Assembly: GCA_012295275.1 (NCBI GenBank)
Contig: CM022679.1
Coordinates: forward strand, 2,604,001-2,668,000
From: Chrysomallon squamiferum
Lineage: Eukaryota; Animalia; Mollusca
Length of the DNA: 64,000 bases
Direction of reading: 5' to 3'
Position numbers and translations under genes: made by a program. The notes under the pieces are model-generated. The model did no database searches, was not told the DNA's origin, and worked only from the letters and a program-made list of their open reading frames with translations. Shown in pieces: positions 1,519 through 50,114 of the stretch (positions within the stretch are counted from its first letter, which is position 1; each line of letters opens with the position of its first letter).

Positions 1519-2902
1519 ATTTACAGTATGGTTTCAGACACATTATTCCATTATTCATCAACGTATGGTTACAGATAAAGTATCCGTTTAATTACGATTT
1601 TCTTGATTTAATAAACATCATTTTGAAGGTGTCGGAACAACAGAACAGACACTGGTGTTTTCTGAATATGTTGTTTACGTTAATAGTTTTCTTCTTGCGG
1701 AAAAAGGAAATTTAAAATAGTTGTTTTTAACTTAGTAACAAATGTAGATAAATCTGAAAGAAGCCTTTTTAAGAAGAAAAAAATAAAAAGTAAATAAAAA
1801 AAAATAAAAACAGCTTGACACAATAAAAATCAATTTACAAAAAATAAATAAATACATTAGTATTAATAGCAATAATAATAAATAAATAAATATAAACAAA
1901 TAAAAAAATAAAAAAAATAATGATAATAAAGCGATAACGAATACTAAGAGTAAACAGGCATTAATTTATCGTTTGCTAATAATTTACCCGAACACAAATA
2001 TCATAACCAGGTTGTTCAATAACAATTAACTAAAAACAGGTAAACGTATAAATAAAGTGGACGTAGGTAAACAGCCAGGAGGTTTTAGGAGAGGCTGATT
2101 AATTTACTAGGAGCTTGAAAGCGTAGGTGATGACGTAGTTCAGGTCGTTGAACATCGAAAAAACCGCTTCGGTTCCATCAGACACTTTCTGTGTTCTACT
2201 GATACGGGGTCTGGCTGAAGTGGCAGTATTTTCATAACGTCTCTGTTTGACCGGAATACTTGTCTGTACTGCTTCGTAATACCCGGATGTTGAGAAATTA
2301 TTTCTAAACTGACATTTGAGAGTGATCAGTAAACTATTTAAAAAAAAATAATAATAATATTTTAATGAATCGTAATACATGTTATAATGTTCCTTTCTGG
2401 GAAAGCTAATTTACGTTGTGAATGAAATGTCTAGTCTTGCAGCAGTGTTTGGAACAGGAAATAAAAATCATTCGTCGTTATGTGGAATGAGAAGAGTGTT
2501 TTGAAATTTGCCTTTGTTGTTTGAAAGTCCCATTTGATATGTGAAAACGTAAAGTTACACTATTTGAAAAGCATAATCAAACGGACTCTTAATCTGTAAC
2601 CATACGTTGATGGATAATGTGTCAGAAACCATACTGTGAAGAAAACAAAAATGTTGTATGTGTTATGTATACTCGATATTCTATAAAGACAACAGTTTCG
2701 TAATGGATACTAAACTGTAACCATACTGTGTAAACAATAAAACGGAATGTTTATTTGTGAAACCATCCTGTAAACAATAATGCGACGAAGATAATTTAAT
2801 AAATCATTTATCTTTATCCTCCTATGAAATACACAACAAAAGCTGGTATAACGGTACTGTGACAAGAGTAACGTAACGAACAGCGGAGTGTTAACAGATA
2901 AA

Positions 2903-5873
<2,971 letters not shown>

Positions 5874-8554: not shown

Positions 8555-10260
8555 TTTGTTGTTTATTTATTTTATTTGTTTTAAATATTATAAAGCAGAC
8601 ACTTTAACTAATTATAAAGTCAGGAGAAAATAAATATGAAATAGGCCATTTAAAAACTGATATTTAATCTTGAAGAATTAATAAAAGGATTTTTATTTTA
8701 AAACTGCCTATGACATTTTAATCTTAAAGGTTTGATGTATGACCTGGCATCCACGGGAGGAGACTTACTACCACCATCTAATTCTTATAATAATGAGCTG
8801 TAACAAATATTTCACGTGATCCTTCCCGCATACAGGAAAACAGTTATTAGGATTTGTGACACATTAGCTTCATAAATACTGATAATGAGACCAATAACTT
8901 CATATTATATGATTACATCATACAGATACTATTGTACACACGCACGCACGCACAGGCACGCATACCGTGAACGATCAATCAGTTTTCTTCTCGTCTCCGC
9001 ATAACGATCGGACAGTAGATCTGTGATGGGGACGCACTGCTTGCCTGGGTCTGTACAGAACCATCTCCATCAGCAAAACTCAGCCGTAGAGATTCAATTA
9101 GAAGATGAAGATATTCAGCTGAGTTGGGTTTTATATCTGTGGTAAAATAAATAAAATAGAATTAAAAAATAAATAAATAACAAGAACAACAAGAATAAGA
9201 ACAATAATAAGAAGAATAAGAAGAAGATAAAGAAGATGAAGAAGGACAAGCAGAAGAAGAAGAGCAAGATGATGATAATGACAATGAAGAACATAAATAA
9301 GAAGAAAGAAAAAGAAAATGTCACTTTCGGATGATGGACAGACAGATATACAGACTGAAAGTCAGATTGATATATTGTTCTGAAAGTAGTGAAAGAAACA
9401 AGATGATATAAATGATAACAATAATGATGGCTATTGTCACTTTCATTACCTTTGAAATCGAAACCTTTAAGAATATTTAAAGCTTGCAGAGCTACAATTC
9501 CCTGGCCGTTTGGTGGCATTTCCCAAATACGATAACCTTTATAATCAATACTGATTGGATCATCAAAGGTAGTCACGTGTGCTGCAAGGTCATCAACGGT
9601 CAAAAGGCCGCCATGTTGTTGTACTGTATTTGCAATGGCACTGGCTATTCGTCCTGAGTAAAAACCCTCTTTGCCGTCGGCTGCAAGTGTCTATAAGTTT
9701 TGTATAAGCAAGTGAAACACGTGTATCAAATAAGCAAAGAAGAAAATGTCTGAAATTTCCCGAGCTCATCACTGGTTATTACTCAAACAACTAATACTAA
9801 TGTTACTACTATGGCATGGGCCATTTTCAAATCTTTGGTTCAAAGTTAATCTGTTAATTTAATATCAATTTTTTATGTACCTAAAATCAAAACGCCGGAA
9901 CAAGCATGGATGTAAGGTTTTCGCCATCCAACTCTAAAACATGCAGACTTTTACTCAACATATAAACGTACTAACAAAATTTCATTTTTTTTTTTTTTTT
10001 TTTTTTTTTTTTGACTCCTACCTTAAATGTCTTCGCTAAATGTGGCATTTTCATGATCTGACCATGTCTCGGTGATTCTCCGTTCAGCAGCATGTCTTTG
10101 CCGTGGACATTTTACAGTCTTTGAATAAGCTCAGCGCCTGTGAATGAATATTCTTAAATCTGAAACCGGTGACATTTGTGAGAACAAAATCTTTATCATC
10201 ATCATCATCATTATTTACATTTTTTATAATTTCTATCATTCACTTCGACTTTTTCATTCT

Positions 10261-10291
<31 letters not shown>

Positions 10292-12908
10292 CTGTTTATA
10301 TATTTATTTATTTATGTTTAGTTATAAATGGTTTAGATTAATACTTTTCTCCCATGCATTTGCAACCCACTGTTGCACCGGAAATCCGGTTTCTGCTAGA
10401 TGAATGGCTGGTTGGAGAACGTCATTCAGAGAAAGCTAAAATTAGAAACACACGTGTAAAGTAATTGTTATTCTTTCCCATGGAATAAGATCTGTTTCAG
10501 AATTATTTTGTTTTAATGTAAAGCGGCTATGAAATCAGTACGGGTAATCTATTACGATCGAGAGCGGTGAGTTCATCAAAATATAGTTTTTTTTTATTAT
10601 TTAGCACACCAGCATAAAGGAAATAACTGGTTACTGGCATCAGATAGCAGCTCTAAGGTGAGGACTGGGTCTTTCGACCTAAACAGTAAGCAGTTATTCT
10701 CTGTAGTTATGTTAGCCCACGCCAGCGTAACAATAAGCATCCTTCCTTAATATGAATTTTATTCATATTTATTAAATAAGAGGTAAAAAAATATGTTTGA
10801 TTTTATAAATATAGCCAGCATTTTTCTTTTATACATTTGTCTCCTGTGGAGAAAATTAAAAACATAAAATAAAAATAATGATAAAAAAGCATTCTGCAGA
10901 GGAACAGAATTTTAAATTCTATAAGCATCGTTTTATGTTAATTCGTGAATACTGATTAAACAAAGATGTGATATTAACGACCAGAGGATTAACTGAGGCC
11001 CTTTCGAGGTTGATGCTACTCACTTTTTTGGAACCGAAGTTTTCCAAAGTGTCCGCCCAAGCCGCCGCGGCTCCAGGCACAGTGACAGAATGAGCGTGAC
11101 AGACAGGAAAGGGACTGGAAGTATCGAATCCTTGCTTAGACAGTATTTCCAGATCCAACCCCTTTGAAGATCGTCCACTTGAAATTAAGATAAACAACTA
11201 TACATTTTATACAAATAATATTTATCAGTTTGTTGTTGTTGTGTGTTTGTTTATATTACAGGTTGAGGATTGTCAAACTGGTTGAGGATGGTTAAACTTG
11301 TTGTTGTTGTTGTTGTTGTTGTTGAGGCTACTTTTATTATTATTGTTTTATTTGATTTTGTTGTTGTTTTAATGTTACTATTATTACTGTTGTTGTTGTT
11401 GTTGCTGTTGTTGTTTTTGTTAATGACTCATACCTTCCATTCAGTCCTTTCACTGACTTGGTTTTTGCGTCGTAGAACAAACAGAACGCGTCACCGCCAA
11501 TTCCTGTAGAACACGGTTCTGTCACGTTCAGAGCAGCAGCAACCGCCACGGCAGCATCAGCAGCATTGCCTCCTCGTTTTAAGATATCTGAATATTAGAA
11601 TGACACTTTATCGTCATCATCGTCGTCGTCGTTATTATTATTATTATTATTATTATAAATGGACCGCTAGCCCTGAACACCACACTTTTAATGGGCTGGT
11701 TTCATTTGGTCCACATACAAACCCATGATATTCTCATGTTATCCATAATCCATATGCTGCACACGGTCGCCTTAGAGGAGGTTACATCCACAGAATATAT
11801 TCAATATGTTAGTATATTTCATAAAATGTGTGTAATTGTTTGGTGATCGTTACTGACTATTTTCAGTATTAGGATTTTACAGACAATGCATGTTAAACTT
11901 GCCTGGTTCACCGCAACATTTCTACTACTACGACTATTTATTTATTTATTTATCTATTTATCTTATTTTATTTTTCCTTTTTATTTTATTTTTTTATTAT
12001 TATTATTTATATTTATTTTAATTATTGTTATTTTATTACTATTACATTCATGAAATTAATAAAGACAACAATCGAACGAACGCAACAAATAAATTTGAAA
12101 ATAACGATAACATGGGAACCCTAAACGGGCCTACTGGGGAAAAAGTCATTATGATCTCGTGAGCTATTGTATTTTTATTCAATGGTATTTATTAAAAACA
12201 CGATATTCCTTTTATACTACAATAAAACACATTAAAAAGATAAAATTTTAGTTTTTACCAATTCCAATCTGAGATGCTAGCGGCTGGCTGCAGGCGACAC
12301 TTCCGTTTAAACTAACAACAACTGATCGTCTCGATTTAAAGCTTAAATCGGCAGCCATTTTGTTAACAAGACTAGAATATCTTTTGTATTTAAATATTTT
12401 GCAAGTGGTAAAGATATATGTGATCCTGGTATTATTTTGTGATAGGAGAAATATCATTTTTGATACAAATACTTTCTACTATGCTAAAATATAATTTGAT
12501 TGTTTATTTTATTTATATAGTTTTATCAAATTTTGTATTTTAGAACTGAAACGAAAGAAAATTATAATTTCTGTTCTCGGTCCCAACAGTATTATAATTT
12601 TATTCATTAAAAGTAAACACCATTACATTAGTGTACTGAAAACATAGATATGCCATACATATTGTAAGTATATTATGTTAAATATGAACAAACTGAATCA
12701 TATTAGTTAACCTCAAATATTTTGTTGTATTAATGTTTTAAGGTATGAAGGCAGCTGTAGAAAAAAAAAAAAGTCTTAAGTATAAAATTGTTATCAGCAC
12801 TGGTTATATGGATTCCAAGTTTAAAAAGCCAAAAAAAAAAGAAATCGTGAAATCCATGAAGGAAAATAAAGATCTTTGTTTCTTTGGTAGACAATAACAA
12901 TAAATAGA

Positions 12909-20619: not shown

Positions 20620-22415
20620 TCACTCGTCTCTGATGTCGTAGAAACTGTTTGAGATGTTTCCAGCCAACATGGACGCCACTCCGTGATGGGTGATGGTGAT
20701 TTCTGCAGGGTGCTGTTCCCAGGGTTCTCCGTCAATCTGCATGGGTGCATTTCCACCTGTGAGGGTGATCTGAAAATAAAAATAATAAAAATTAAGTTTA
20801 TTTATCACTTCACTGCAGAATACTGTCATACTGAATAAATAAAAAAAACAGAGTGACAAGTTTTGATCTACAAGCCAAAAATATATCAGTGTAAAATCAT
20901 GAACTTTGAAAACTTCAAAAATAATAATAATAATAATAATAAAATAAAACAATATATTACTCTCACAAAATTTAACAATTACAGTTAAAGAAAAGAAATC
21001 CCAGATGATGATGCCCCTGGTATGTGCTTACAGCAGGATGCAAAATTTAATTTGAAAAATGAAGAGTCACTGGTGTATAATGAAGATTAGTGATTAGGTT
21101 TAATACAGAACAGCAGACAGCAGGATCAACACTAAGCAAGGTGTTGTCAGGTTATATTCCTTTCCAACCAACAAACTGAATATCAGTCATTTTAATAAAT
21201 GTCAGTGAGGAAACAATGAGGCAGATTAACTATTTTCTAATAACATCATTATTTTTTTTTTAATTATGATTACATATTTTAATTATAATTATTATTATTA
21301 TTTTGATTTTTTTTTTGCAAATACTTTAAAAGAAAATGTATGACTTAATGTATTGTTAATAATAACAACTATACAGGGCTGCTGTTAAGAAAATGTTAAT
21401 TCTGTGTTGTTTGTGAATGTTAAGACATACTTTGACTTTGCTGGCCTGACCAAGTCGTAGAGGTGATGCAAGACCAACTTGTAACTGTGCTATATGAAAA
21501 GAGGAGTAGAGAGCCATAACTTCCAACAAACCATCATCATATCTGAAAAACATTCAAGTATCATTATTGTAATAGCAGTTTGTAACATAATTATTAATAT
21601 TAATTTGAAAAACATACAAGTGTTGTTAATATAGTAACTAAACAGTTTGTAACATTAATTTGAAAGTATTGTTAATGTAACAATGTAATAGTTTATAACT
21701 CAAGTTCACACATTAATTTGAAAAGCATATAAGAAATGTTTATGTAATAACTAAATTGTCTGTAACATAACTATCAACAACATTTATTTGAAAAACATGC
21801 AAGTATTGTTAATGAAACAACTAAATAGCTTGTAACATAATTATCAAACTCAAATACAAACTTGAAACATAAAATGGTTTCAACCGGTTAAACTCTTCAA
21901 CATGTCTGATTTTTCTGCATTAAGTAATCTACTTTTACTTATATTACTAGACAAAACCAGGTTAGCATCACATTTCACAATAGTAAAATATAAATAAAGG
22001 GAGTTAATTCATGGCACTGCATTAAAATATTTCTTATCCAATTTGATGATATATAATATAGTTGTTTCATTTATTTTTTTATTATTATTTTATTTTTTTT
22101 CCAATTTTAAAATGTTCAAGCTAGACTATTAATTATTTTAAATGTCACTCACTTATATTTACCACTATTTTAATATGTTCACCCATCATGTTTCCATTTA
22201 TTTTAATAAATATTCCATTTAATATTTATATTCCATTTTACTAATTTTTTGTATAAATATATAAAATATCCAATTCAAAATTATTAAGTTCAGATTATTT
22301 ATGAAAAATTCAATATAAAATGTTTTATAAATAAAATTATTTAACTGTTCAGATTAACAATTTGTGTTGAATTAAACATTTGCTTTATGTTAGACACACA
22401 TAAATAAGACACATG

Positions 22416-22451
<36 letters not shown>

Positions 22452-25400
22452 CCTAGCTGGTCGGAAGATTTTTTCATCATTTGCAAGATCCCAGGGCCGA
22501 CATCCCCCTCCCCAGCTGGCAATGTTTAGAACAACCAAACCTTCAATCTCTGGTAAATAAATTTCTTCATCATCAAGTTCTACCTGTAAAGAAAAATTAA
22601 AAATAAATAAAAATAATTAGAAGTAAAACAATTATCAAAAATATAAATTAGAATGTCATTTTTATGAATAAATGTAAATGTTTATCAAAAATCAAAAAAA
22701 TCAATTAAAATCAAATTAAATTAAATTCTAACAAATCATATTAGTTTATCCAGTAAATATAATATTATTATTTTTATTATTATTTTAATACTAATAATAA
22801 AAAAAACCACACTTTAAAAACAAACATTTTGTACAATAAAAACCATTTTCATACCTCTATATAACTCAACAGCCAAACTGTTTTGCATTCTTGGGTGTTG
22901 TTAAACATTCATTCATTCATTCCATGCTGTACAGTTAATTTCTAAAACTCAGTTCTTTCAATATCTACAACAATGACATAAATAATTTAACTTACCTTTA
23001 ATTTTTTATGAAGATTCTTACATTCTCGTTCCAAAACATCCTTAGTTCCATAAGTGAAGTAACAGAACTGAAATAAAATACTAAATAAATTATTTTATAT
23101 TTTAAGTCAAGAAATCCTGAAAATCCAGAAATTCAGTCAATCTCCAACTCAGTTTGCATAATAAATGATCTTGTACAGGTACACAAAATATGTTTAACAA
23201 TTAGCACTGCTAATAGTAGAGGTGTATTTAAAATACTACAAATGGAAGTAAACAAAATATATGTAGAATGCTTATTAGCACAAGACAATTAGAAAAGATA
23301 TTTAAAACTGTAAAAATATAGAAAGTGCAAACCTTATTAACAAATCTGTTGGCAAACAGCCATGGTGTACTTTCTCTTCGTTTGTGGAAATTCAAAGTGA
23401 CTAGAGCATCAACACCCAGTGAAACATAATTATTCATAATGAATTCCTGAAATGTGACAATATAATAATTAATTACAAAGATATTAAGTGTTCAATCTGT
23501 TGATTATGCTAAAATATTTTCTATTTGTTTGAGGCCAGTGGATCACAGTCAACAAAAAGCAATTATTCATAATAAATTCCTGAAATATAAAATATTTGTT
23601 ATAACAATATCAACATAAACTATTAATTATAAAAATATTTAGGAGCATAATTTATTGATTATACTAAAGAATTTGATTAAATTTCACTGTTGTTAATCAA
23701 TCATACCAAAGTCTATTTCAGTTGTAAGAAATAAGAAAAATTCATGTCTGTATTAGCTTATATTAAAGTATTTACTGTATAGATATTCTGAAGAAACTTA
23801 CCTTATTTGATCTAGTGATTAATAAATGTTTCTCATGAACAATGCTGATCTTCCATCTATACAAAAAAATAAAGATAATAATAAATACTAATATTATAAT
23901 AATTATAATATATATATATATATAATACTTAACAATAATAACAATAATAATAACAGTAACAGCAGTAGCAATAATATAGTAATTATTATTATAATAATAC
24001 AGTACAAACACTAATTAGTAATAATGATAGCAGTAGTAAAAACATTAATTCTAAAATTAACATAATAATAGAGAAAAAGTAACCAAAATAAAAAGTAAAA
24101 TACAAAATTAAACATTGTGATTTTAAATTAAAAGAGTTACCTGTCAAGGAACACCGGTTTTGACCACTTCAACTGGTCAAGAACATCGGTCACTTCTACT
24201 GACCCTGTGTACCCATCTCCCCACCCCAGGACCCTAGACAAATCATTACCAGTCCCTAGTGGCAGGATGCACACTTGGGGAGGGTTCTGAAAAAAATAAA
24301 ATACTACTACTAATAATAATAACTTAACATTTATTTATATTAAAATGTATTAATTTTATTATCTATATTATTATTGTTGTTGTTGATGTTGTAGCAAATA
24401 ATTATCGTCTTAATAAACCATTGTTTTAACATCTCTTGTTTCAACAGAATACACAGTTAATATTAGAAAATAATATGGAAAATGAAGTGAAATTTCAACT
24501 GAAAATTATATTTTTATTAACACTATTACAGCATTAGTGAAATAAACAAAAATGTTAATTATGATTTCATGTACTAATAAATCAAGATTAATATAAATTG
24601 AAATGTACTTACGGCATAATGATTTAAATATAATTTAATGAACAACACACTTGTGTTAATGATTAAAACATGTTCCATAATTAAATTTCTATGGTTTTTG
24701 AATCCAATTAAATTAATTCCTAAAGTTAATAAATGACAAGCATTTATACACACAAGACAGAAAGAGAGAGTAAAAAAGAAAATGCCTAGAGAAAGAAAGT
24801 TATAAAAAATGATAGAAAAAAAGAGCTAAATATACAAAATAATATTTTCATTGTTGTAGATTACATACTGCCAGTTCTAACTTCTCTATGGCATACAGCA
24901 CCCAGCCAACAGTCCCATCTCCCCCACAGACCAATACCCGCACTTTAACATCTGTCACCAGATGGCACCACTCTAAACAGTTTTCTGGTGGAATATCTTG
25001 AAGATCTATAACCTGAAAATTATAACAAAAAAGTGTTAGTTTCAACCCATACAGCAATTGTTTGCAGACTGTTTAGAAGATACATTTTTCTAATAAAAGT
25101 TTGTAGATAAATGTATCTAAGTAGAAGTCAGTAGATTGTGTGTGTGTCATTGCATGTGTGTGTCTGTGTGTTCACATAGGTTTTAGTAGCTAAAATTGCC
25201 AAGAAATAATTTAACAGATAAATACAACAGTATAAATTTTGTAGATAAATGTATATAATAATATAGCCTAAGATTTAGTACATAAATATACTTGTGAAAT
25301 GAAGATGAAATGTATAATATAAATTTACCTGAGTAGGATTTAGAATTGCTCGGAATGCTCTCAGCAGATGCTGCCCGTCGTTGTTACCACTTTTACTGTT

Positions 25401-26006
25401 TGCCAACACAACGAGCGGACTCCACTGATTCAGTGGAGGTTTCTTCACCGACTTGACAACCAGACGTCTCCGTCCCCGCGGCCCCGTCCACTCGAGTTCG
25501 AGACACGTCGGAGGAACGATTTCAGCCTTGTATTTACCAAGATCACACAGAGTTGTTTCTGCACTACACTTGTCATGCACCGTCGTCTGACACCAACAGC
25601 ATCTACGATCACACAGCTCGGGCATCATGCCACAGTCATCACTACAGACGTCACACTTGATGCCCATCGGAAGGTTTCCTCTCACCCAGTGGTGCTGCAT
25701 CGCCTCCCCACAGGCGGAGCATGGAGCTTTGCAAGAAATCGTCTTGTTAGCTTCTTTCATGTTGTGGTCATCAACTCGGATGCCACATGACTCACACTGG
25801 GCTCCATGAATGATCTGGTAACCCCCCACGTTGCAGAAAGTGGGTTGGGAAAAAGAATCCACCATGAACCAGCGGTGACCTTCTCTGATGTCTGGGGCAG
25901 GTACTTCATAGTGACGCAGACGAAACTGGCGGTGGATTCGGGATAAAAAAATAATAACAGCTATTGCGGTCATCATCATTAGTACATTCCATAATGTTGG
26001 ATCCAT
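20620..26006 (-). CDS. DGKE: Diacylglycerol kinase epsilon
   Basis: Coding exons 26006-25329, 25012-24869, 24286-24141, 23856-23802, 23446-23333, 23067-22996, 22583-22453, 21542-21431, 20769-20620, all phase-consistent. N-terminal hydrophobic segment, two C1 domains (HRW...C; HHWVRGNL...CCWCQ), [52 protein letters not shown]. Confidence 0.95.
21545..21860. repeat. Degenerate ~55-70-bp minisatellite in a DGKE intron
   Basis: Recurring unit attaatttgaaaaacat-caagtattgttaat-aactaaa-agtttgtaacataattat, about 5 copies. Confidence 0.65.
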
Positions 26007-26988
26007 AAGCTAAAAATACATTAAAATTAAAATGTCATAAAAAATGCTGTTTAATCCACTTCAGTTTTACCATTATATATTTAAGAACACCATATACTAT
26101 TTTTTTACTTTTTTTTTTTAAATAAAAATAAAATTCCTGACTGATAATAAATTACAACACAAAAGAAAAACTGATGTACCTATTCTGTTTAAAAACCAAT
26201 TAATACAAGAAACAACAAACTCTCTTCAGAAGATATTCTTGTCAGGTTTTCTAACCAGTTTACAGCTATTTTCACTCAACACAAAACAATGTTAAAATAA
26301 TGAAATTCTTAAAAGACTGGTGCTATATCACACACTGCTCTGATCTGCAGTTTAATTAATGTAACTTTTTAATATCTCTAGCTATTGATATATTATTTAT
26401 GCACAATGTATGTATTTTGTAGTTACCTTTGGCAGCTACATTTGCATCTGTTTAAGAACAACTAATTTGAATAATATACATCCATCAAAGTTGATTATTA
26501 CAGTATTATGTATCTTTTTTCTTTTTTTTTAATCATTCTATACTTCAGATTATGATCTGAATATAAATACAGTTCAAATCAGCTCAGTGTAAATCCCTAA
26601 TCATAATAGAATATTAATATTGTATATTAATTTTTATTACATTTTTTATGTTATTTTTAAAATAATATTGGTCTTAGTACAAAATAAATGGGTATAAAAT
26701 TAAATATATAAATTATAATTATTAATAAAATCAGAAAAAAATAATTGTCGTTATCTTTTTAAGTATGATTATCACTACTCAATACTGCAATCATTAAAGT
26801 TTAAAGTGATTAATGTAGAGCTGCATATCAGTTATCATGTCTCATTCATTGAAGTATGACTATTGACTAAGCATTATAATTTGAAGTATTACAATTTACA
26901 GCTGTCAGAGTTTTATCTGCTAAAAATAGTAAAATCCTGAATACGTCAGTAGCTTTTCGCAATAATTCGGTATTAAATTTTTCTACAT

Positions 26989-30767: not shown

Positions 30768-31301
30768 CTTTTGATTTTTTTTTTTCCTGGAATTTTTTTT
30801 TTTATTTTTTTTTATTTTTTTATTTGTTCTTAAGTTCAGAAAAAAAAAAAAAAAAAAGTCAAATTCAAACATTTAATAATGATTTCTAATGTAATTTTTA
30901 TACAACCACTAATTACAATATTACCGCCAATACGACTTTTATTACAGCGATATTATAATTATCATGTGTATTATTATAACATCATTATTGTTATTATAAG
31001 TATTATTTTTATCATCATCATCATCATTATTATTATTATTATTAATACTATAACTGCAGCGACCACTACTACTGATGTAGTTTGATATATTATTATAATG
31101 TGAACATGTTATTCATTTCTTTATTCTATTTCTTTATTTCATTCATTCATTCAAGGACCAGGCCTCTCACAAGGTGATTGAGAAAAGACGACGTGACAGG
31201 ATAAACAGTTGTCTAACAGAGCTGAGCCAAACCGTGCCACCTGCTTTCGCCAAACAGGTACAGTTTTAATGTGTTTATATGTACGTATGTTAGTATGTGT
31301 A

Positions 31302-31387
<86 letters not shown>

Positions 31388-31592
31388 ATGTAAGTACATT
31401 TTTTTTTTTTTTTTTTTTTTTTTTCAGACGACTGGTAAACTGGAGAAAGCGGAGATTCTGGAGATGACAGTGCAGTACTTGAGAGCGTTACAAAGTACAG
31501 AGATGGGAATGCGATTTGAACAAGGTTCCTTAATTTACTATCATTTTTTACAGCTCTTTTTCAGTGAGCTTTTTATTTTTCATTCAGCAAGA

Positions 31593-31653
<61 letters not shown>

Positions 31654-33663
31654 CATAGTAACAAAAAGAGTAACAACAACAGTAATAATAGTAGTAGTAG
31701 TAGTAGTAGTAATAATAAAAATAATATATCATCATCATCATTATCATTATTATTAAAAAAACTAAATACATCATTCATATAAAGACTGAAACAAGCCAGT
31801 CTTGCATCTAGTCAGGACCTAATAATTAGTGTTGGTTATTTTCGTCAATCTGCAGCCTGTATGTGTCAGTGATACTTTCAAACGCGCGTTGTTATAGCAG
31901 GTGCGAGATCACGTGATCCGATCCGCGCGCCCCTTTAATAAGCCCTTTTACTAGTTTTCCCGGTAGAAATTTTACAAAAATGTTTGTCTCTTTCGCTCCC
32001 TGTGTGTGTGTACACGAACATACTTCCATGCTTCTGTTTAGATCTCACATGCCGACAAAAAATTAGACTTTTCATTTTATTGTGCTCGCTGGTGCCTATG
32101 CACTAAGACAATAAACATCGATGCATTTATTCACAAAATTTAAAATTTGGAAAACTAATTGGTCCTTCAAACGTTGCACAGACAGCATCTAACTGTGCAT
32201 GTTCTTGTCACTCTTGCACGTGACATGATTCACGTGAGGCGCGCGATTGCGACCTCTTTAGCGGTTTCCTGAACACAAGCAACGTATGGCGCGCTCATGG
32301 GCACAAAAGACGATTTTTTTAGTAAGGCGTGTACGGCACGTGCGGGATCGTTATGCATTGTGTAAGTTGACCTGCATGAATTACTGTAGACGCACGTGAA
32401 TGCGCGTGGCTGTTCAACTAAACGATATTCACATTTGGTCAGCTGCAGTTATCGTACTTGGTTGCTAATAGACGCGAGTTTCATGCAACAACGCGCTCAA
32501 CGGCGTTCGTTGTGCGCGCGACATCTTGAACATAATATAGCTTGTCAATTAAAAATACCGACTGGCAGGTTGTTTCTCTGAACACACCGCACGATCCACT
32601 TTTATAATTTATCAGTACTACATTTGTCATTCAGGTTACACTGCCGGTATTAGAAGGACTCTATCCGTGTTGCAGCATGTTTCTGGTTAATATTAATGTG
32701 GTATTTTCTTTTAACTGCAACAAAGCTATCATCAAAAGTACACGATCCATTTTTACAAGAATATAATGAAAACAACTGTCTTAGTGGTATTCGTGTCTCC
32801 AGTAAATTAGCTGCTAGTATCCGTTTTTAGAAACAGTTATGATCACAGAGATATTCGTTTTTACAGAAATTGAAATCCTGTTTATTACTACTACTACTAC
32901 TTGTTTTTTATTTACAGGTAATGAAAAAGGAAAGTAAAAAGGTAGCTTTGTCTACAACATTAATCATTTGTGCATGTGTTTTTCTCATGATCGTGCACAT
33001 GTATATCCATTCAACCGGGTGTTCCCAAAAGATTTCTTAAGACAAATTAATTTTATGTTATTTCATTTTTGTTTCGTAGGGGAGTGGTACAGTTCTGACA
33101 TTTGGACAGATTTTGCACAACATTACAGGGACGGATACAGTGAATGTCTGCAGGAAGTGGTACGGTTCATGACGGATGTAGAAGGGATAGGCCTAAACGA
33201 CGCACGATGTGTTCGTATCGTGTCGTTTCTCCAGGCGCGTTTTAGACAGAACACTTCAGTTACACCTGGCGCCAGTTACCAAGACACTCTTCAAAGATTC
33301 ATGCCAACACGTGAAAAGCCACATGAAGGGCCAGCAGTTCGAACTCCGGTAGGAAATTTCGACATGCAAACGACAATGGCCGGACTTCCGGCATCATTGA
33401 TCACGTCATCAGCAGGATATTTTCAGGAAAGGAGCCCCTCGCTGTTTTGTGCGTCTGGTGATATCGGTGTTGCTATAGGATCACCATGTGCTGCATCTCG
33501 TCTGTTAAGTCATACAGCAGCGTCGTCGTTGCCGGGAATGTCGCCTTTTTATTCGGGATTGATGACAAATCCACATTTCTCACGACGTCTGTGCAACAAC
33601 ACCACGCTACTCAACGGAACTGACCGAGCTTCACGATACAGAACCGATACAACCAGTTCTTAA
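30608..33663 (+). CDS. HELT: Hairy/Enhancer-of-split-related bHLH-Orange transcription factor HELT
   Basis: Exons 30608-30640, 31156-31257, 31428-31524, 33080-33663. bHLH [52 protein letters not shown] is HELT-type. Orange domain YRDGYSECLQEVVRFMTDVEG. No C-terminal WRPW/YRPW. Confidence 0.9.
31907..32400. promoter_or_regulatory. Intronic E-box cluster (HELT intron 3)
   Basis: CACGTG at 31910, 32217, 32231, 32337, 32393 in a CpG-rich patch. Confidence 0.7.
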
Positions 33664-34461
33664 AGCATGATAAATATAATTAGCTAACAGACATAGCAAG
33701 TTCAGCGTAGGTTCCAGGCTCAGTCGTATTCAAGTCGGGATAATGTCTCCATGGTGCAGCGAACTGGACATTTTTTGTTTTTACCCTACCTGTGTATGGG
33801 GGGGGGGGGAGTGGATATAAAAATGCGTAAACAAATTCCATCAGAACTGTTGTAGTTTCGTTAAATGAGATTCAAGTTCTCAAGATGAAACTACCGTGTG
33901 AAGCCAGTAATATAGTTCATTCATGTTTTTCTCCGACATGCAAATATAAATGCACAATAAACGTTACTTAAAACGCTTCATTTTTTTTTTTTTGTTTTTT
34001 AACTAAAGACCATACTGAATTTAGATGTTTATAAACATCTTTAACTATTTTAAGTAAATCTCCCAAACAATTTGAGTTTTATGATTATCCGCTATATGAA
34101 ATACAAATGTCCTTGAAGGAATACTGGGATCATGAAGTTTTCGAATATTTGGTGTATTCGAATTGCTGCGATAAAAGGATTGCCTCCCCCCCCTTCCCTT
34201 TTGTATGTAATAACATTTTGAATTTGAACGATTGTTAAATGTAAAGACTTTTGCATTTGAAATGGGGGTGGGTGGAGAATTACAGGAGTGAATTTGTCGA
34301 GCTTCAGATGGAAATTTGAAATGTTTCGCTCGTGTTTAGAATTGAACACAAAATTGAACATTTGCATTTTAAAAAAAAAAAAGGAAAAAAAAATCAATTT
34401 TGTAGCTTTTATTAAACCTTTAAAGCCCGGTATTTTTACAAATACAAAGATGTGCGACGTG

Positions 34462-35092
34462 TCAATTCCAGCGTTTGTCAGCTCCATCTTCATCGACAGC
34501 TTCTACAACTGCAAGAAAATTTCGTGTTTTTAAAAAATAAACTTAACCCGATGAGAAATTACACATGTTTTGAATTGTTACTTACGTTCATCTTTATCCA
34601 CAAAGTTGAAATCGTCCAATTCAGCTGCGTTCAGTTTGCCGTCACCATCGCTATCTGCAGCGTGGAATTTTTTCATTTGAACCACGTTTGTGGGTTTCAG
34701 ACCCGATGCTACAGCGATTTCATGCAGATCAGCAAAACCATCTCCATTCAGATCCAGTTCTTTCAAAGCTGCGACATCGTCAGCATCCTAAAATTCAAAA
34801 GACATTTTTAATCCATGACGTTTACGAAGAACCTTTTCGCGTTTACATCAGAATTTGATATTAATTTTTATTTGGTAAATACCTCTGCTGGAGGAGCTCG
34901 CACGTCCAGTCCTCTCTTCCTCTTGCACACCTTGCATGCCCAGCTCCTGGCCCACTTACAGGCCGCCATACAACCAAGTGTGTGATACGGACTGACGCGA
35001 ATTCTTCGCACGGATCGGAAGAACCAGCCGTCCACGTTTTCAGGAACCAAGGTCAAGGTCAACAGAACCAGCAAGAAATATGTGGACTTCAT
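34462..35092 (-). CDS. Secreted precursor: signal peptide + cationic Trp/Cys-rich peptide + KRKR + acidic two-EF-hand domain (putative antimicrobial peptide precursor, 152 aa)
   Basis: Coding exons 35092-34883, 34787-34586, 34508-34462 (459 nt, GT-AG, in phase); non-coding exon 1 at ~35250-35206. Protein: MKSTYFLLVLLTLTLVPENVDG|WFFRSVRRIRVSPYHTLGCMAACKWARSWACKVC|KRKR|GLDVRAPPAEDADDVAALKELDLNGDGFADLHEIAVASGLKPTNVVQMKKFHAADSDGDGKLNAAELDDFNFVDKDELVEAVDEDGADKRWN. The gene model is solid; the function is inferred. Confidence 0.85.
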
Positions 35093-35244
35093 TTTGCTGG
35101 AAAAATATTCAGTTATTCTTTATAAAAATAAAAAATAAAAAAAACAAATTCCCTCATTAAAATTAAATATAAACGAATTAAAGTTAAAGAAATTAAATCA
35201 CTTACTTGAGCAAAACAGTTTCTCCACAAAACACTGGAAGACGA

Positions 35245-35300
35245 TGAAGTGACTACGCGTCGAAACTTCACTTATTTATATTGTAAAAATTAATCACGTG
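35245..35300 (-). promoter_or_regulatory. Core promoter of the peptide/EF-hand gene (TATA + Inr + E-box)
   Basis: Minus strand TATAAATA at 35280-35273; Inr-like TCACTT with its A at 35250, 30 nt downstream; CACGTG at 35295-35300. Confidence 0.65.
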
Positions 35301-35967
35301 ACCAGTCATGAAATTCGTTCTGCACGCTCCTCCTCGGATATCCAGTGAAAATGTTTGTACTGGAAATATACGTCAGTGTCTGTGAAAACAGAAAACACAG
35401 ATTGAGCTTTACAAAACAGTTAAGAGATAATTGTTGAAAATTTGTTGTATTGAGTCAGTTATGCAATTCAGAATACTTTTTTAATTAATTTAAATGTTTT
35501 GATGTTATTGGGATTTGCCTTTAAAAATGTATTGATATTATTTTCAAAGATATTCCTGTAGGTTTATAATTAATTATAAATGTAAAAAAAAAACTTAACG
35601 AAATTTAAATAAATATAAGTTATTAATAAAATTAATGTGTATTCATTATTATTTTAATTAAATAGTAGGACTTAGACTAACAAATACATTTAATATATGT
35701 CAACTGAGTTTTATGTGAAATTTTAAATTATACATGTACATCCGCAGCAGGGGAGCTTGGCACCCTCCGAATACGGACCTGAAGGGATTTTTTTATTATT
35801 ATTATTTTTTTTAACTATTTTCTTCAGTGAAAATATTGGTTGTTTTATGTTTTATGTTTTGTAAATATCTTAAGTGATAGAGAATATAATAGCTTTTAAC
35901 ACAGGTACTTACATTATGTGTTATTACATAAACTGACTTTATATGTGTGGCTAAGTACATATTTTAA

Positions 35968-36135
35968 TGTGCTACATTTTCATCTACAACTTCTTCAACT
36001 TTTTGAATTTGCAAACGAGAAGTACACATATTGAATGGTTAATTTTGTTTATCTTTATCCACGCAGTTGAAATCATCCAATTCATCAGTTTCAGTGTGCC
36101 TCCACCATCTCTATCTGCAGCATGGAATGTTTTCA
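35968..36135 (-). pseudogene. Decayed partial duplicate of the EF-hand precursor gene (second EF-hand, last intron, start of last exon)
   Basis: 36047-36134 aligns with 34586-34674 (FHAADRDGGGTL..ELDDFNCVDKD), with a 1-nt deletion and a lost GT donor. 35981-36000 aligns with the last exon at 34491-34510. Confidence 0.85.
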
Positions 36136-36200
36136 GCAACGTCCAACAATATTACAATTTCACAGATAAAATAATAGGGATATTCGACAAGGTCACTATT

Positions 36201-36239
<39 letters not shown>

Positions 36240-36462
36240 AAAATCGAAATTACAACAGCAAATTTGTTGAAAATACCTAATATAGAAATATATAAAATAG
36301 TAAATTAATTAAATGTAATATGTTTGTATTACTATGTTTATTACTTAATGACTGACATATCAAAATTTTATCATACTTAAATAAAGTTTACATATTTTCA
36401 ATTTTGTTTTTATATTATTGACTTTCTCAGTATATTCATATATCTTACCTGTTATCCGTAAT

Positions 36463-36464
<2 letters not shown>

Positions 36465-36524
<60 letters not shown>
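36465..36524. repeat. (AG)n microsatellite
   Basis: Direct reading. Confidence 0.95.
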
Positions 36525-36528
<4 letters not shown>

Positions 36529-37319
36529 GAAAAGTGAATCATAATACTAACCTTTTGTCAAAATTATTTAGTTATCAACAGAGAAAAATGTTTATTAACA
36601 AAAACAAACAGAACAACAAACAACAGCAACAACAATCAACCAACCAACCAAACAAACAAACAAACAAATACTAATCTCGATTTAGGAAAGATATTTATGT
36701 TTTGCAATACACAATTTTGGAAATCAGTAGTCTAATCATCAATCGATTCGTCAAAAAGTACACGTAAAAGGATCTTTAAATTTTCAGTGTAATGAAATAG
36801 TCACATTACTTCACGCAGTAACTGAGAAAATAAATATCAAAGAACATGTATACATCTAGATCAATAAGATAATACATTTCAGTTATAATGAATTTAAGGA
36901 GAAAAGAAAAGTTTTTTTTTTTTTTTTTTTTTTTTTTGTAGAATAAATAAATCAACTGTAATAAATTATTTTTCTTTTAATTTAAGAAATATAATGTAAA
37001 AATAATATACAGTTTTGTAATTAAGAAGGAAAAAGGTATTTTGTTTCTTATACATTTTTCTTAGTGCAATTTTCTAATTATTTAAAATTAAAAATATAAA
37101 AATATTGCACTAAAGATTATGCCCAAAACGTAAGTAAATGTAATATTCAACGTGAAAATTATTTTCGACACATTTAATTTACAAAATTGTAAGCTAAACA
37201 TCCGTTTTACTGATGTATTAGCGTGATAAACTGAAACTGGAAAATGTTTGCTATATACTTTAATCATTATTTCAAGAAAATGTTTATAACAAATTTTAAA
37301 TTAATACAATTTAATTCAA

Positions 37320-37430
37320 AAGAATCGCAGACTAACGCCATTTTAACCGGATGACATCACATTTCTCTTGCCTTTTTTATCATGTTCGCTTTACAGACGT
37401 TATAAATGACGTTGTCAGTGGCAACCAACT
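37320..37430. promoter_or_regulatory. Promoter-like motif cluster without an assigned gene
   Basis: YY1-like CGCCATTTT (37336-37344), ETS-like CCGGAT, ATGACATCA, and RFX X-box-like GTTGTCAGTGGCAAC (37411-37425) in a CpG-containing patch. Confidence 0.4.
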
Positions 37431-37890
37431 GTGACTTTCAGAAACCAATTCTAACGTGCAAAAGGTTCTCGATCGGAAATTAAATTTCGAACTTGGCATT
37501 CAGAATATTTTCATCAAATTCGACATGGTTTCTGATTCCGATCTTCATTGTTTTGCGAAACTGCGTCTAAATTTATTGTTTTTATTTTCTTTTCTTTCCT
37601 CTTTTTTTTTTTTTTTTTTTTTCTTCTTTTATGATTTCGGCCGACGCTTCTAAATTTGTTTTCATTTTTCTTTATTTTTTCCCCTTAATTTTTTCTTTTC
37701 TTCTGCATGCATACAACACGAATATGCCTAATGGAAGAAAGAACACCAAGCTGAAGAAAGAAGAGTCAAGAGATGGAAGATCTGACTGCCATTTTCTTCA
37801 CATACCTTTTTCTGTCTATCTTTTCTTTTTGTATTATTTATTATTATTATGATTTTATTATTATTATTATTATGATTATTATTATTATGA

Positions 37891-37923
<33 letters not shown>

Positions 37924-37960
37924 TTATTTATTTATTTATTTTGACCCTTATTTTTAACTA

Positions 37961-38692
37961 CAGTGGTACCTTGACTTACGAGGTTAATTCGTTCCGTGAC
38001 CGAGCTCGTAACTCAATTTACTTGTATATCAAATCAATTTTCCCACATGAAATGAACTGAAATACCATTAATCCGTTCCAGACCCCAAAAACCACCCCAA
38101 TTTTGGTAATTTGTTTTTAAATAAGAAAAATATATTTATAAATGACAAATATTGTATAAAAAAATAATAATAATAAAAGAATAAAAAAGAAATAAATTGG
38201 TTTTGTACAGTGTACAGGGTTAGGGTTTCTCCATCTTTTCATGGACAGAAGTTCGCAGCTTAGAAATTATTTTAACGCCTTTGGCTGCAGTTGTAGCCTT
38301 TATAGGATCCTTCTGCTTCAGTATGGTACATATCGTGAAACTACTACGCTCGTACTGCCTGTCCATGTTGACTACACGCACACCTCGCTCGTGTTTTTCT
38401 ATGATTTCATGCTTTAATTCAGTCTACATCATCTGCTTCTTCTTCTCAGCACTGTCCTATGAACTCACGTTTTTAGGATCCATGGAAAACGCGAGCACAA
38501 CACAACAGAGCTGCTTCCACGTGAAACAAACAAGTACGCGGGATGCTGGGCGGATGTTGTGTTGTTCGTGTATCTGAAGCTTGCTCGTAACTCGGATTTT
38601 GGTTCGCAACTCAAAGCAAAAAATTGACTGGGCAGCTGCTCGTAACTCGATAAACTTGTAAGTTGGAGCACCCGTAACTTGAGGTACCACTG
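37961..38692 (-). mobile_element. Internally deleted Tigger/pogo (Tc1/mariner superfamily) DNA transposon
   Basis: TIRs CAGTGGTACCTTGACTTACG and CGTAACTTGAGGTACCACTG with TA target-site duplication. Minus strand from 38483 encodes a stop-interrupted N-terminal CENP-B-type HTH: MDPKNVSS*DSAEKKKQMM*TELKHEIIEKHERGVRVVNMDRQYERSSFTICTILKQKDPIKATTAAKGVKIISKLRTSVHEKMEK. Confidence 0.9.

Positions 38693-40259: not shown

Positions 40260-50114
<9,855 letters not shown>

Follow-up and report, generated by a model that had tools for sequence, protein, structure and literature searches.

Does the minus strand of Chrysomallon squamiferum DNA just past the midpoint of the 64,000-nucleotide stretch analysed here (the window) encode a precursor from which a cationic defence peptide is released, and does that precursor belong to a kind not yet described? 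The first-pass annotation of this locus proposed both, reading a compact four-exon gene for a secreted protein of 152 aa in which a basic, Trp-containing peptide with four Cys is followed by a furin-type site and by a strongly acidic domain with two EF-hands, the latter perhaps serving as a calcium-sensitive sheath. The gene model, the conservation of each part of the precursor, the comparison with characterised systems and the rival explanations for its function are considered below.

A spliced gene and its relatives

The window, with a GC content of 29.5%, is animal DNA, and the neighbours of the peptide gene are ordinary and unrelated (Table 1); the C1-domain neighbour resembles a diacylglycerol kinase, and the WD40 protein a dynein intermediate chain. 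GC content is 54% in coding exon 2 and 45% in coding exon 3, against 26-27% in introns 2 and 3. The sequence bears out the annotated structure in its coordinates, its counts, its TATA box with initiator and its GT-AG introns. The start near 35250 is taken from Inr-like letters rather than from reads, and from these we infer the 5' end of exon 1. Exon 1 finds support in a paralogue contig of run X2, which passes from exon 2 at 35096 into exon-1-like letters, 19 of the 23 first places matching when compared by eye.

Table 1. Features of the peptide gene and its surroundings, in window positions.
Feature	Position	Strand	Basis or remark
Rhodopsin-family GPCR exons	2852-4670	+	neighbour
Gamma-glutamyltransferase exons	9115-11197	-	neighbour
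C1-domain protein exons	20620-26009	-	neighbour
Hairy/Orange gene exons	31197-33663	+	neighbour; ends about 0.8 kb from the peptide gene
Polyadenylation signal AATAAA	34408..34413	-	sequence
Coding model	ATG 35092; coding exons 35092-34883, 34787-34586, 34508-34462	-	product 152 aa
Exon 4, coding part: acidic tail and stop	34462..34508	-	C-terminus varies among relatives
Intron 3, 77 nt, GT-AG	34509..34585	-	skipped in contigs of X1, X2, X3
Exon 3, EF-hand pair	34586..34787	-	Pfam and loop pattern
EF-hand loops	34754-34719 and 34655-34620	-	33 residues apart; loop pattern
Intron 2, 95 nt, GT-AG	34788..34882	-	skipped in contigs of X2, X3, X5, X8
Acidic linker start (remainder of exon 2)	34883..34912	-	acidic in all complete G. 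aegis models
KRKR, predicted convertase site	34913..34924	-	KRKR in 17/19, NRKR in 2/19 relatives having the 34-aa peptide
Predicted mature peptide, 34 aa, net +7, four Cys	34925..35026	-	sequence and relatives
Predicted signal peptide, 22 aa (exon 2 starts at 35096)	35027..35092	-	hydrophobic core, small residues at -3/-1
Intron 1, 109 nt, GT-AG	35097..35205	-	sequence
Exon 1, non-coding	35206..35250	-	GT donor at 35205; 5' end inferred
TATA box	35273..35280	-	sequence; TATA at 35280, 30 nt 5' of the Inr-like A at 35250
Broken relic: 3' half of exon 3, intron 3, exon 4	35890..36135	-	frameshifted, donor lost
WD40 protein exons	46563-48155	-	neighbour

Evidence for splicing comes from contigs assembled from public runs of three studies. 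The 77-nt intron is absent from contigs in three of the four runs of a first set, which belong to one study, and its skip was listed as a joint in none of the four runs of a second set; the 95-nt intron is skipped in two of the four runs of each set. In the three RNA runs of the first set the exon region is covered, and the flanks at 34200-34412 and 35123-36300 have zero depth. Contigs from the public runs do not extend over exon 1 or the 3' UTR, which is uninformative. Exact matches to the window reach 94 nt in X1 and 116 nt in X4, and many RNA contigs lie 2-12 letters off the window sequence, so that part of the splicing evidence derives from paralogues or alleles. Several gene copies or alleles are present in those libraries, contig depth being no measure of expression level; X5 and X6, which hold small shares at a depth of 2-3 under other organism labels, were left out of the species range. 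With both coding introns skipped in RNA contigs and all introns of the GT-AG type, an artefact or chance ORF was rejected, and these data show that the gene is spliced as modelled and is a member of a multi-copy family. A broken relic of the gene lies some 1.5 kb upstream (81.5% identity over 119 nt), with a local score of 146, where 30 shuffles reached 36 at most. In 35700-38500, nothing resembling exon 1 or exon 2 stood clearly above shuffles.

Relatives were sought by exon and by profile. A search with exon 2 retained seven of 56 candidates, every one a Gigantopelta aegis protein at 79-89% identity. The profile search retained 92 of 7985 candidates, of which 63 are general EF-hand proteins and 29 belong to the family, these comprising ten G. 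aegis models and 19 unnamed exon fragments from ENA. At least 12 G. aegis gene models on four scaffolds carry the whole peptide, a count that may include haplotype duplicates or isoforms. They are labelled only as EF-hand or uncharacterised proteins and have an EF core 53-62% identical to that of the window gene; in three of them (XP_041362131.1, XP_041364776.1 and XP_041346692.1) the peptide is identical at 32-33 of 34 positions. All named close relatives thus come from this vent snail, described as having two intracellular symbionts and a genomic GC content of 37% (PMC7895826), a range that may reflect sampling, as non-symbiotic relatives may be missing from the databases.

The peptide, its predicted release and its acidic carrier

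On recount the predicted peptide has the features first ascribed to it: 34 residues with seven Lys or Arg, no Asp or Glu, three Trp and four Cys spaced C-x3-C-x7-C-x2-C, giving a mass of 4077 and a pI of 10.3. Secretion of the precursor is predicted from a signal peptide judged by pattern, each of the 22 aligned rows having small residues at -3 and -1 ahead of the Trp. Over 15 relatives, identity to the window gene averages 92% in the peptide, 69% in the signal and 40% in the linker, and over 12 relatives it is 51% in the EF-hand exon. When ten G. aegis models are compared with one another in 45 pairs, the peptide reaches 97%, the signal 83%, the linker 53% and the EF part 72%. Across 19 relatives, 28-33 of the 34 residues are identical, and not one of these relatives has lost a Cys or any of the three Trp, their charge being +7 or +8 throughout; a more distant copy (P0110) has four Cys and a charge of +5. 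At the nucleotide level, a contig of run X6 has one mismatch to the window in 74 letters at the end of the peptide and 21 mismatches in 128 letters of the EF exon (Fisher p 0.0006), in a comparison whose limits were placed where the contig fits, which favours the contrast. In run X7, a 128-nt contig without differences covers 34916-35043 at a depth of 563, flanking contigs lie at 36-41, and up to ten variant contigs span the EF exon; this gives a weak hint that many copies are identical in DNA over the peptide, depth being no copy number.

Selection, or homogenisation, is by these comparisons focused on the peptide, while the carrier drifts in sequence and retains its calcium ligands and negative charge. 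Being the best-kept part of the precursor, the peptide is probably its working product. The first-pass annotation had named as damaging the case in which homologues keep only the EF-hands; the pattern found is the reverse, with the cationic Cys segment best conserved, and this conservation supports the proposal of a secreted precursor in which that segment would be important. The hydrophobic moment is 0.63 in the first 11 residues and about 0.5 in the Cys helix. Modelled with AlphaFold at low confidence, exon 2 forms helices at 19-29, 34-47 and 51-59 that make a hairpin about the paired Cys (pLDDT 61.5; a full-length homologue gave 44). With this model, Foldseek returned no match at E 0.001, and the best fold-search hit reached a Z of 5.1 among unrelated helical chains.

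Cleavage at KRKR is predicted. Each of the 19 relatives that carry the 34-aa peptide has a basic site here. The annotation had called it furin-type, but the strict furin consensus is R-x-K/R-R, and a double KR with Lys at P4 departs from it. The tail of 92 aa that follows contains 24 Asp or Glu and nine Lys or Arg, for a net charge of about -15. The KR-WN at its end, to which the annotation had also pointed, is present in the window gene but not kept in relatives; it is probably no functional feature, and a function for it was rejected. Exon 3 matches Pfam EF-hand_5 (E 3e-8) and encodes two loops of 12 residues, each having acidic ligands at positions 1, 3, 5 and 12 and Gly at 6, loop 1 having Ala at position 8; the pair is predicted to bind calcium. 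Both loops, at the same distance of 33 residues, recur in 14 of 16 G. aegis models, the exceptions being one frameshifted and one truncated. In all 11 complete G. aegis models, the first 16 residues past the basic site carry a charge of -5 to -8, which opposes and about matches that of the peptide.

The proposal that calcium governs release of the peptide on secretion fares less well. The secretory lumen and marine mollusc haemolymph are both rich in calcium, so that the EF-hands would stay loaded on secretion, and the 16-residue linker by itself already about balances the charge of the peptide; for these reasons, calcium-triggered release is doubtful. It is more likely that calcium folds or packs the precursor rather than releasing the peptide, unless the latter acts in a vacuole poor in calcium. 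A modelled complex of peptide, EF exon and calcium, computed without alignments, scored 0.02, which is no evidence either way.

A known precursor plan and a reusable carrier

No characterised family matching the peptide was found in Pfam, PDB, the ESM Atlas or a literature motif search, and sequence searches of Pfam and PDB with exon 2 gave nothing significant. In the ESM Atlas, a full-length homologue retrieved EF-hand clusters only, at up to 0.84, and among the ten rows listed three molluscan clusters of 133-145 aa at 0.81 offer a lead only; the N-terminal 64 aa found no usable match. A scan of JGI metagenomes confirmed none of 481 pattern matches. Peptide motifs were not found in the published supplements searched, nor was a description of the 34-aa peptide in the literature covered, which excluded most subscription journals and figure images. 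The annotation's view that the peptide family is an unrecognised one is upheld by these sequence and literature searches.

In its layout, the precursor follows the general form of cationic host-defence precursors, with a signal, a short cationic peptide predicted to be amphipathic and an anionic propiece. Plant alpha-hairpinins, whose motif is C-x3-C-xn-C-x3-C, likewise set four Cys on a helix-turn-helix, which is predicted for the window peptide (pLDDT about 60); however, all copies of the latter have C-x3-C-x7-C-x2-C, and precursor and kingdom differ. In cathelicidins and in the BRICHOS-linked peptides of annelids, a folded N-terminal pro-domain is reused with unrelated antimicrobial peptides and is itself the conserved part, whereas the carrier examined here is C-terminal, consists of an EF-hand pair and is less conserved than the main peptide.

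The closest resemblance is to the mytimycins, in which a signal, a Cys-rich peptide with antifungal activity, a dibasic site and an anionic EF-hand C-terminal part follow one another (PMC8004829; PMC7653742, figure legend). Both the order of parts and a non-coding first exon are shared with the window gene, and the claim of a new precursor system does not survive this comparison, since the architecture, including dibasic site and anionic EF-hand tail, is already described (PMC8004829). Mytimycins are reported there only from Mytilida and have ten invariant Cys and up to six more; the window peptide and its relatives have four Cys in 34 aa, and membership was rejected. The EF-hand part of mytimycins, to which their authors assign an unknown role, is called highly conserved (PMC8004829), unlike that of the window family, which is less conserved than its peptide. 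This comparison was made by published description; no named mytimycin occurred among the matches listed in the sequence searches (the best 150 of 1332 in the largest scan). The locus holds a member of a peptide family undescribed in the literature covered, on an already known precursor plan.

The same type of carrier also accompanies other peptides. Two G. aegis models (P0021 and P0046) have Trp-rich, Cys-free peptides of 14 and 19 aa, with net charges of +1 and +2, between the same signal and a KRR site, and a third (P0133) has a 22-aa peptide with three Cys and a net charge of -1; in P0021 and P0133 the EF carrier is that of the family. In their EF cores, P0021 and the long-peptide copy P0009 agree at 87%, more closely than P0009 does with any of five other long-peptide G. 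aegis copies compared (71-78%), so that in P0021 the peptide would have been recently replaced or cut down, or the carrier converted. Relationships were read from such pairwise identities, as none of 13 branches of a pro-domain tree was starred. The carrier is, on these grounds, a reusable module that bears other peptides within the same lineage.

A scan of 1.84 billion representatives gave 1332 hits, of which the best 150 are mostly proteins with many EF-hands; among these 150, three new rows span the N-terminus, one of them from the chiton Liolophura sinensis (XP_064609442.1). Its signal has a similar end and is followed, as in the window gene, by WF and an Arg-rich start, then by a cationic segment rich in Cys, a basic site and an acidic part whose two EF-hands again lie 33 residues apart. 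It differs in its peptide, which is of 43 aa with six Cys, a charge of +18 and Gly before KKKR, and its EF core is 33% identical to that of the window gene. Signal plus peptide outscored all of 300 shuffles against the family profile, while the score of the peptide alone against the peptide profile was equalled or passed by 106 of 300 shuffles, and a word search from the chiton protein recovered only itself among 20 candidates. Shared ancestry of the two precursors, a matter of one protein, is likely, and the carrier has probably taken other peptides in other molluscs too. The chiton protein itself is a strong unannotated antimicrobial candidate on the features of its sequence.

What the peptide may do

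Host defence, in a general sense, is the function we favour, if only somewhat. Under this reading, the signal would be removed before Trp23, as small residues at -3 and -1 throughout the alignment suggest, and the Cys of the peptide would bond in a nested arrangement, C19 to C34 and C23 to C31, on a helix-turn-helix that lies behind an amphipathic N-terminal helix with Trp, Phe and Arg. Within the secretory pathway, where calcium is abundant, the EF-hand pair would fold and would join the acidic linker in masking and packing the peptide until a prohormone convertase cuts at KR-KR, where the missing Arg at P4 suits convertases of the regulated pathway. A carboxypeptidase could then trim the product to a free C-terminal Cys56, with no amidation because no Gly precedes the basic site. 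The freed peptide might bind the anionic envelopes of bacteria or other microbes and kill or restrain bacteria, the switch being cleavage more likely than a fall in calcium. The 12 or more G. aegis models with the whole peptide fit a product needed in bulk. Against a defensive role, the peptide is near-invariant, unlike the rapidly diversifying peptides of many defence families, and such constancy is also seen for receptor ligands; moreover, the paralogues with nearly neutral or negative peptides indicate that the carrier is not always paired with a strongly cationic one, and secreted EF-hand proteins occur in shell matrices, as detailed below.

A special case of host defence, which we regard as fairly unlikely, is that of an effector delivered to the compartment of chemosynthetic bacteria, where it would limit or shape them instead of killing invaders. 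The single named species with peptide hits is a snail with intracellular endosymbionts, four runs recorded as RNA are labelled metatranscriptomic, and a peptide frozen across many copies hints at a single unchanging target; but the library label is no tissue evidence, the range may be one of sampling, and a chiton carries the same precursor type. Constancy of the peptide, together with the double KR site, could instead belong to the precursor of a hormone or neuropeptide, the peptide then acting as a receptor ligand and the EF part as a module for granule sorting or calcium buffering, and a land-snail gene is described, in a title cited by PMC8398477, as combining putative neuropeptides with an EF-hand region. 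Such a role is nevertheless unlikely, as neither Pfam nor PDB yielded a match to known peptide families. A dozen near-identical copies, a net charge of +7 and the missing amidation signal are also unusual for a neuropeptide.

Calcium handling by the acidic EF part, with the basic peptide as an anchor or cross-linker, would suit a matrix protein of shell, scale or mucus of the EFCB/PFMG1 type. Secreted EF-hand proteins of this kind are reported from shell or mantle, namely EFCB1 and EFCB2 of Lottia gigantea (PMC4094399) and PFMG1-like genes of Pinctada (PMC3120837), whereas abalone Hdh-SMP5, likewise filed as a shell protein but with three EF-hands of which the first is at residue 36, has a different layout (PMC10741955). 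The EFCB2 family (B3A0R9) is a small multigene family filed as shell matrix, and its tryptic peptides, ordered by their flanking residues, read as a basic hydrophobic stretch, G-K-R and an acidic part (PMC4094399 and its supplement); no Cys occurs in the peptides observed, in contrast to the window peptide, and EFCB2 may itself be a precursor built as signal, peptide, basic site and acidic part. Yet it accounts for only about 0.1% of the matrix (PMC4094399), the EF-hand part of the window family is less conserved than the peptide, and a pair of EF-hands 33 residues apart was seen in none of 28 SMART EF-hand rows in proteome tables covering shells and sclerites from two peltospirids (PMC11871041), a weak point; a matrix function is accordingly judged very unlikely. 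The most improbable of these readings is that the precursor stays uncut as a calcium-switched protein, in which a Trp-anchored basic helix docks on its own EF pair like a calmodulin target. The EF pair does resemble a calmodulin lobe, and calmodulin typically binds basic amphipathic helices that bear an aromatic anchor; but cleavage is indicated by the basic site, which none of the 19 relatives having the 34-aa peptide lacks and which persists as KR or KRR alongside the other peptide types.

Read as a host-defence precursor, the gene provides a concrete, synthesisable antimicrobial candidate of 34 residues, from a vent-snail lineage with no such peptide in the literature searched, which would have to work in seawater salt. 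The question of the mytimycin EF tail also becomes testable, a similar type of tail being found with four different peptides in one genome, and should the peptide act on symbionts, a deep-sea chemosymbiosis would gain a named host effector. In a broader proposal, to which we give a rather low probability, a single mollusc superfamily would use the signal and EF-hand carrier to deliver interchangeable defence peptides, much as the cathelin domain does in vertebrates, and would include mytimycins and some supposed shell proteins; one of its peptides would have been amplified and frozen in chemosymbiotic vent snails to police intracellular symbionts, like the NCR peptides of legumes.

It is of note, with regard to gene structure, that many ENA exon fragments (P0025-P0037) and one G. 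aegis model (P0023) stop inside the second EF loop, at window 34620-34655, which suggests that these relatives have an intron within the loop that is missing from the window gene and from the relic.
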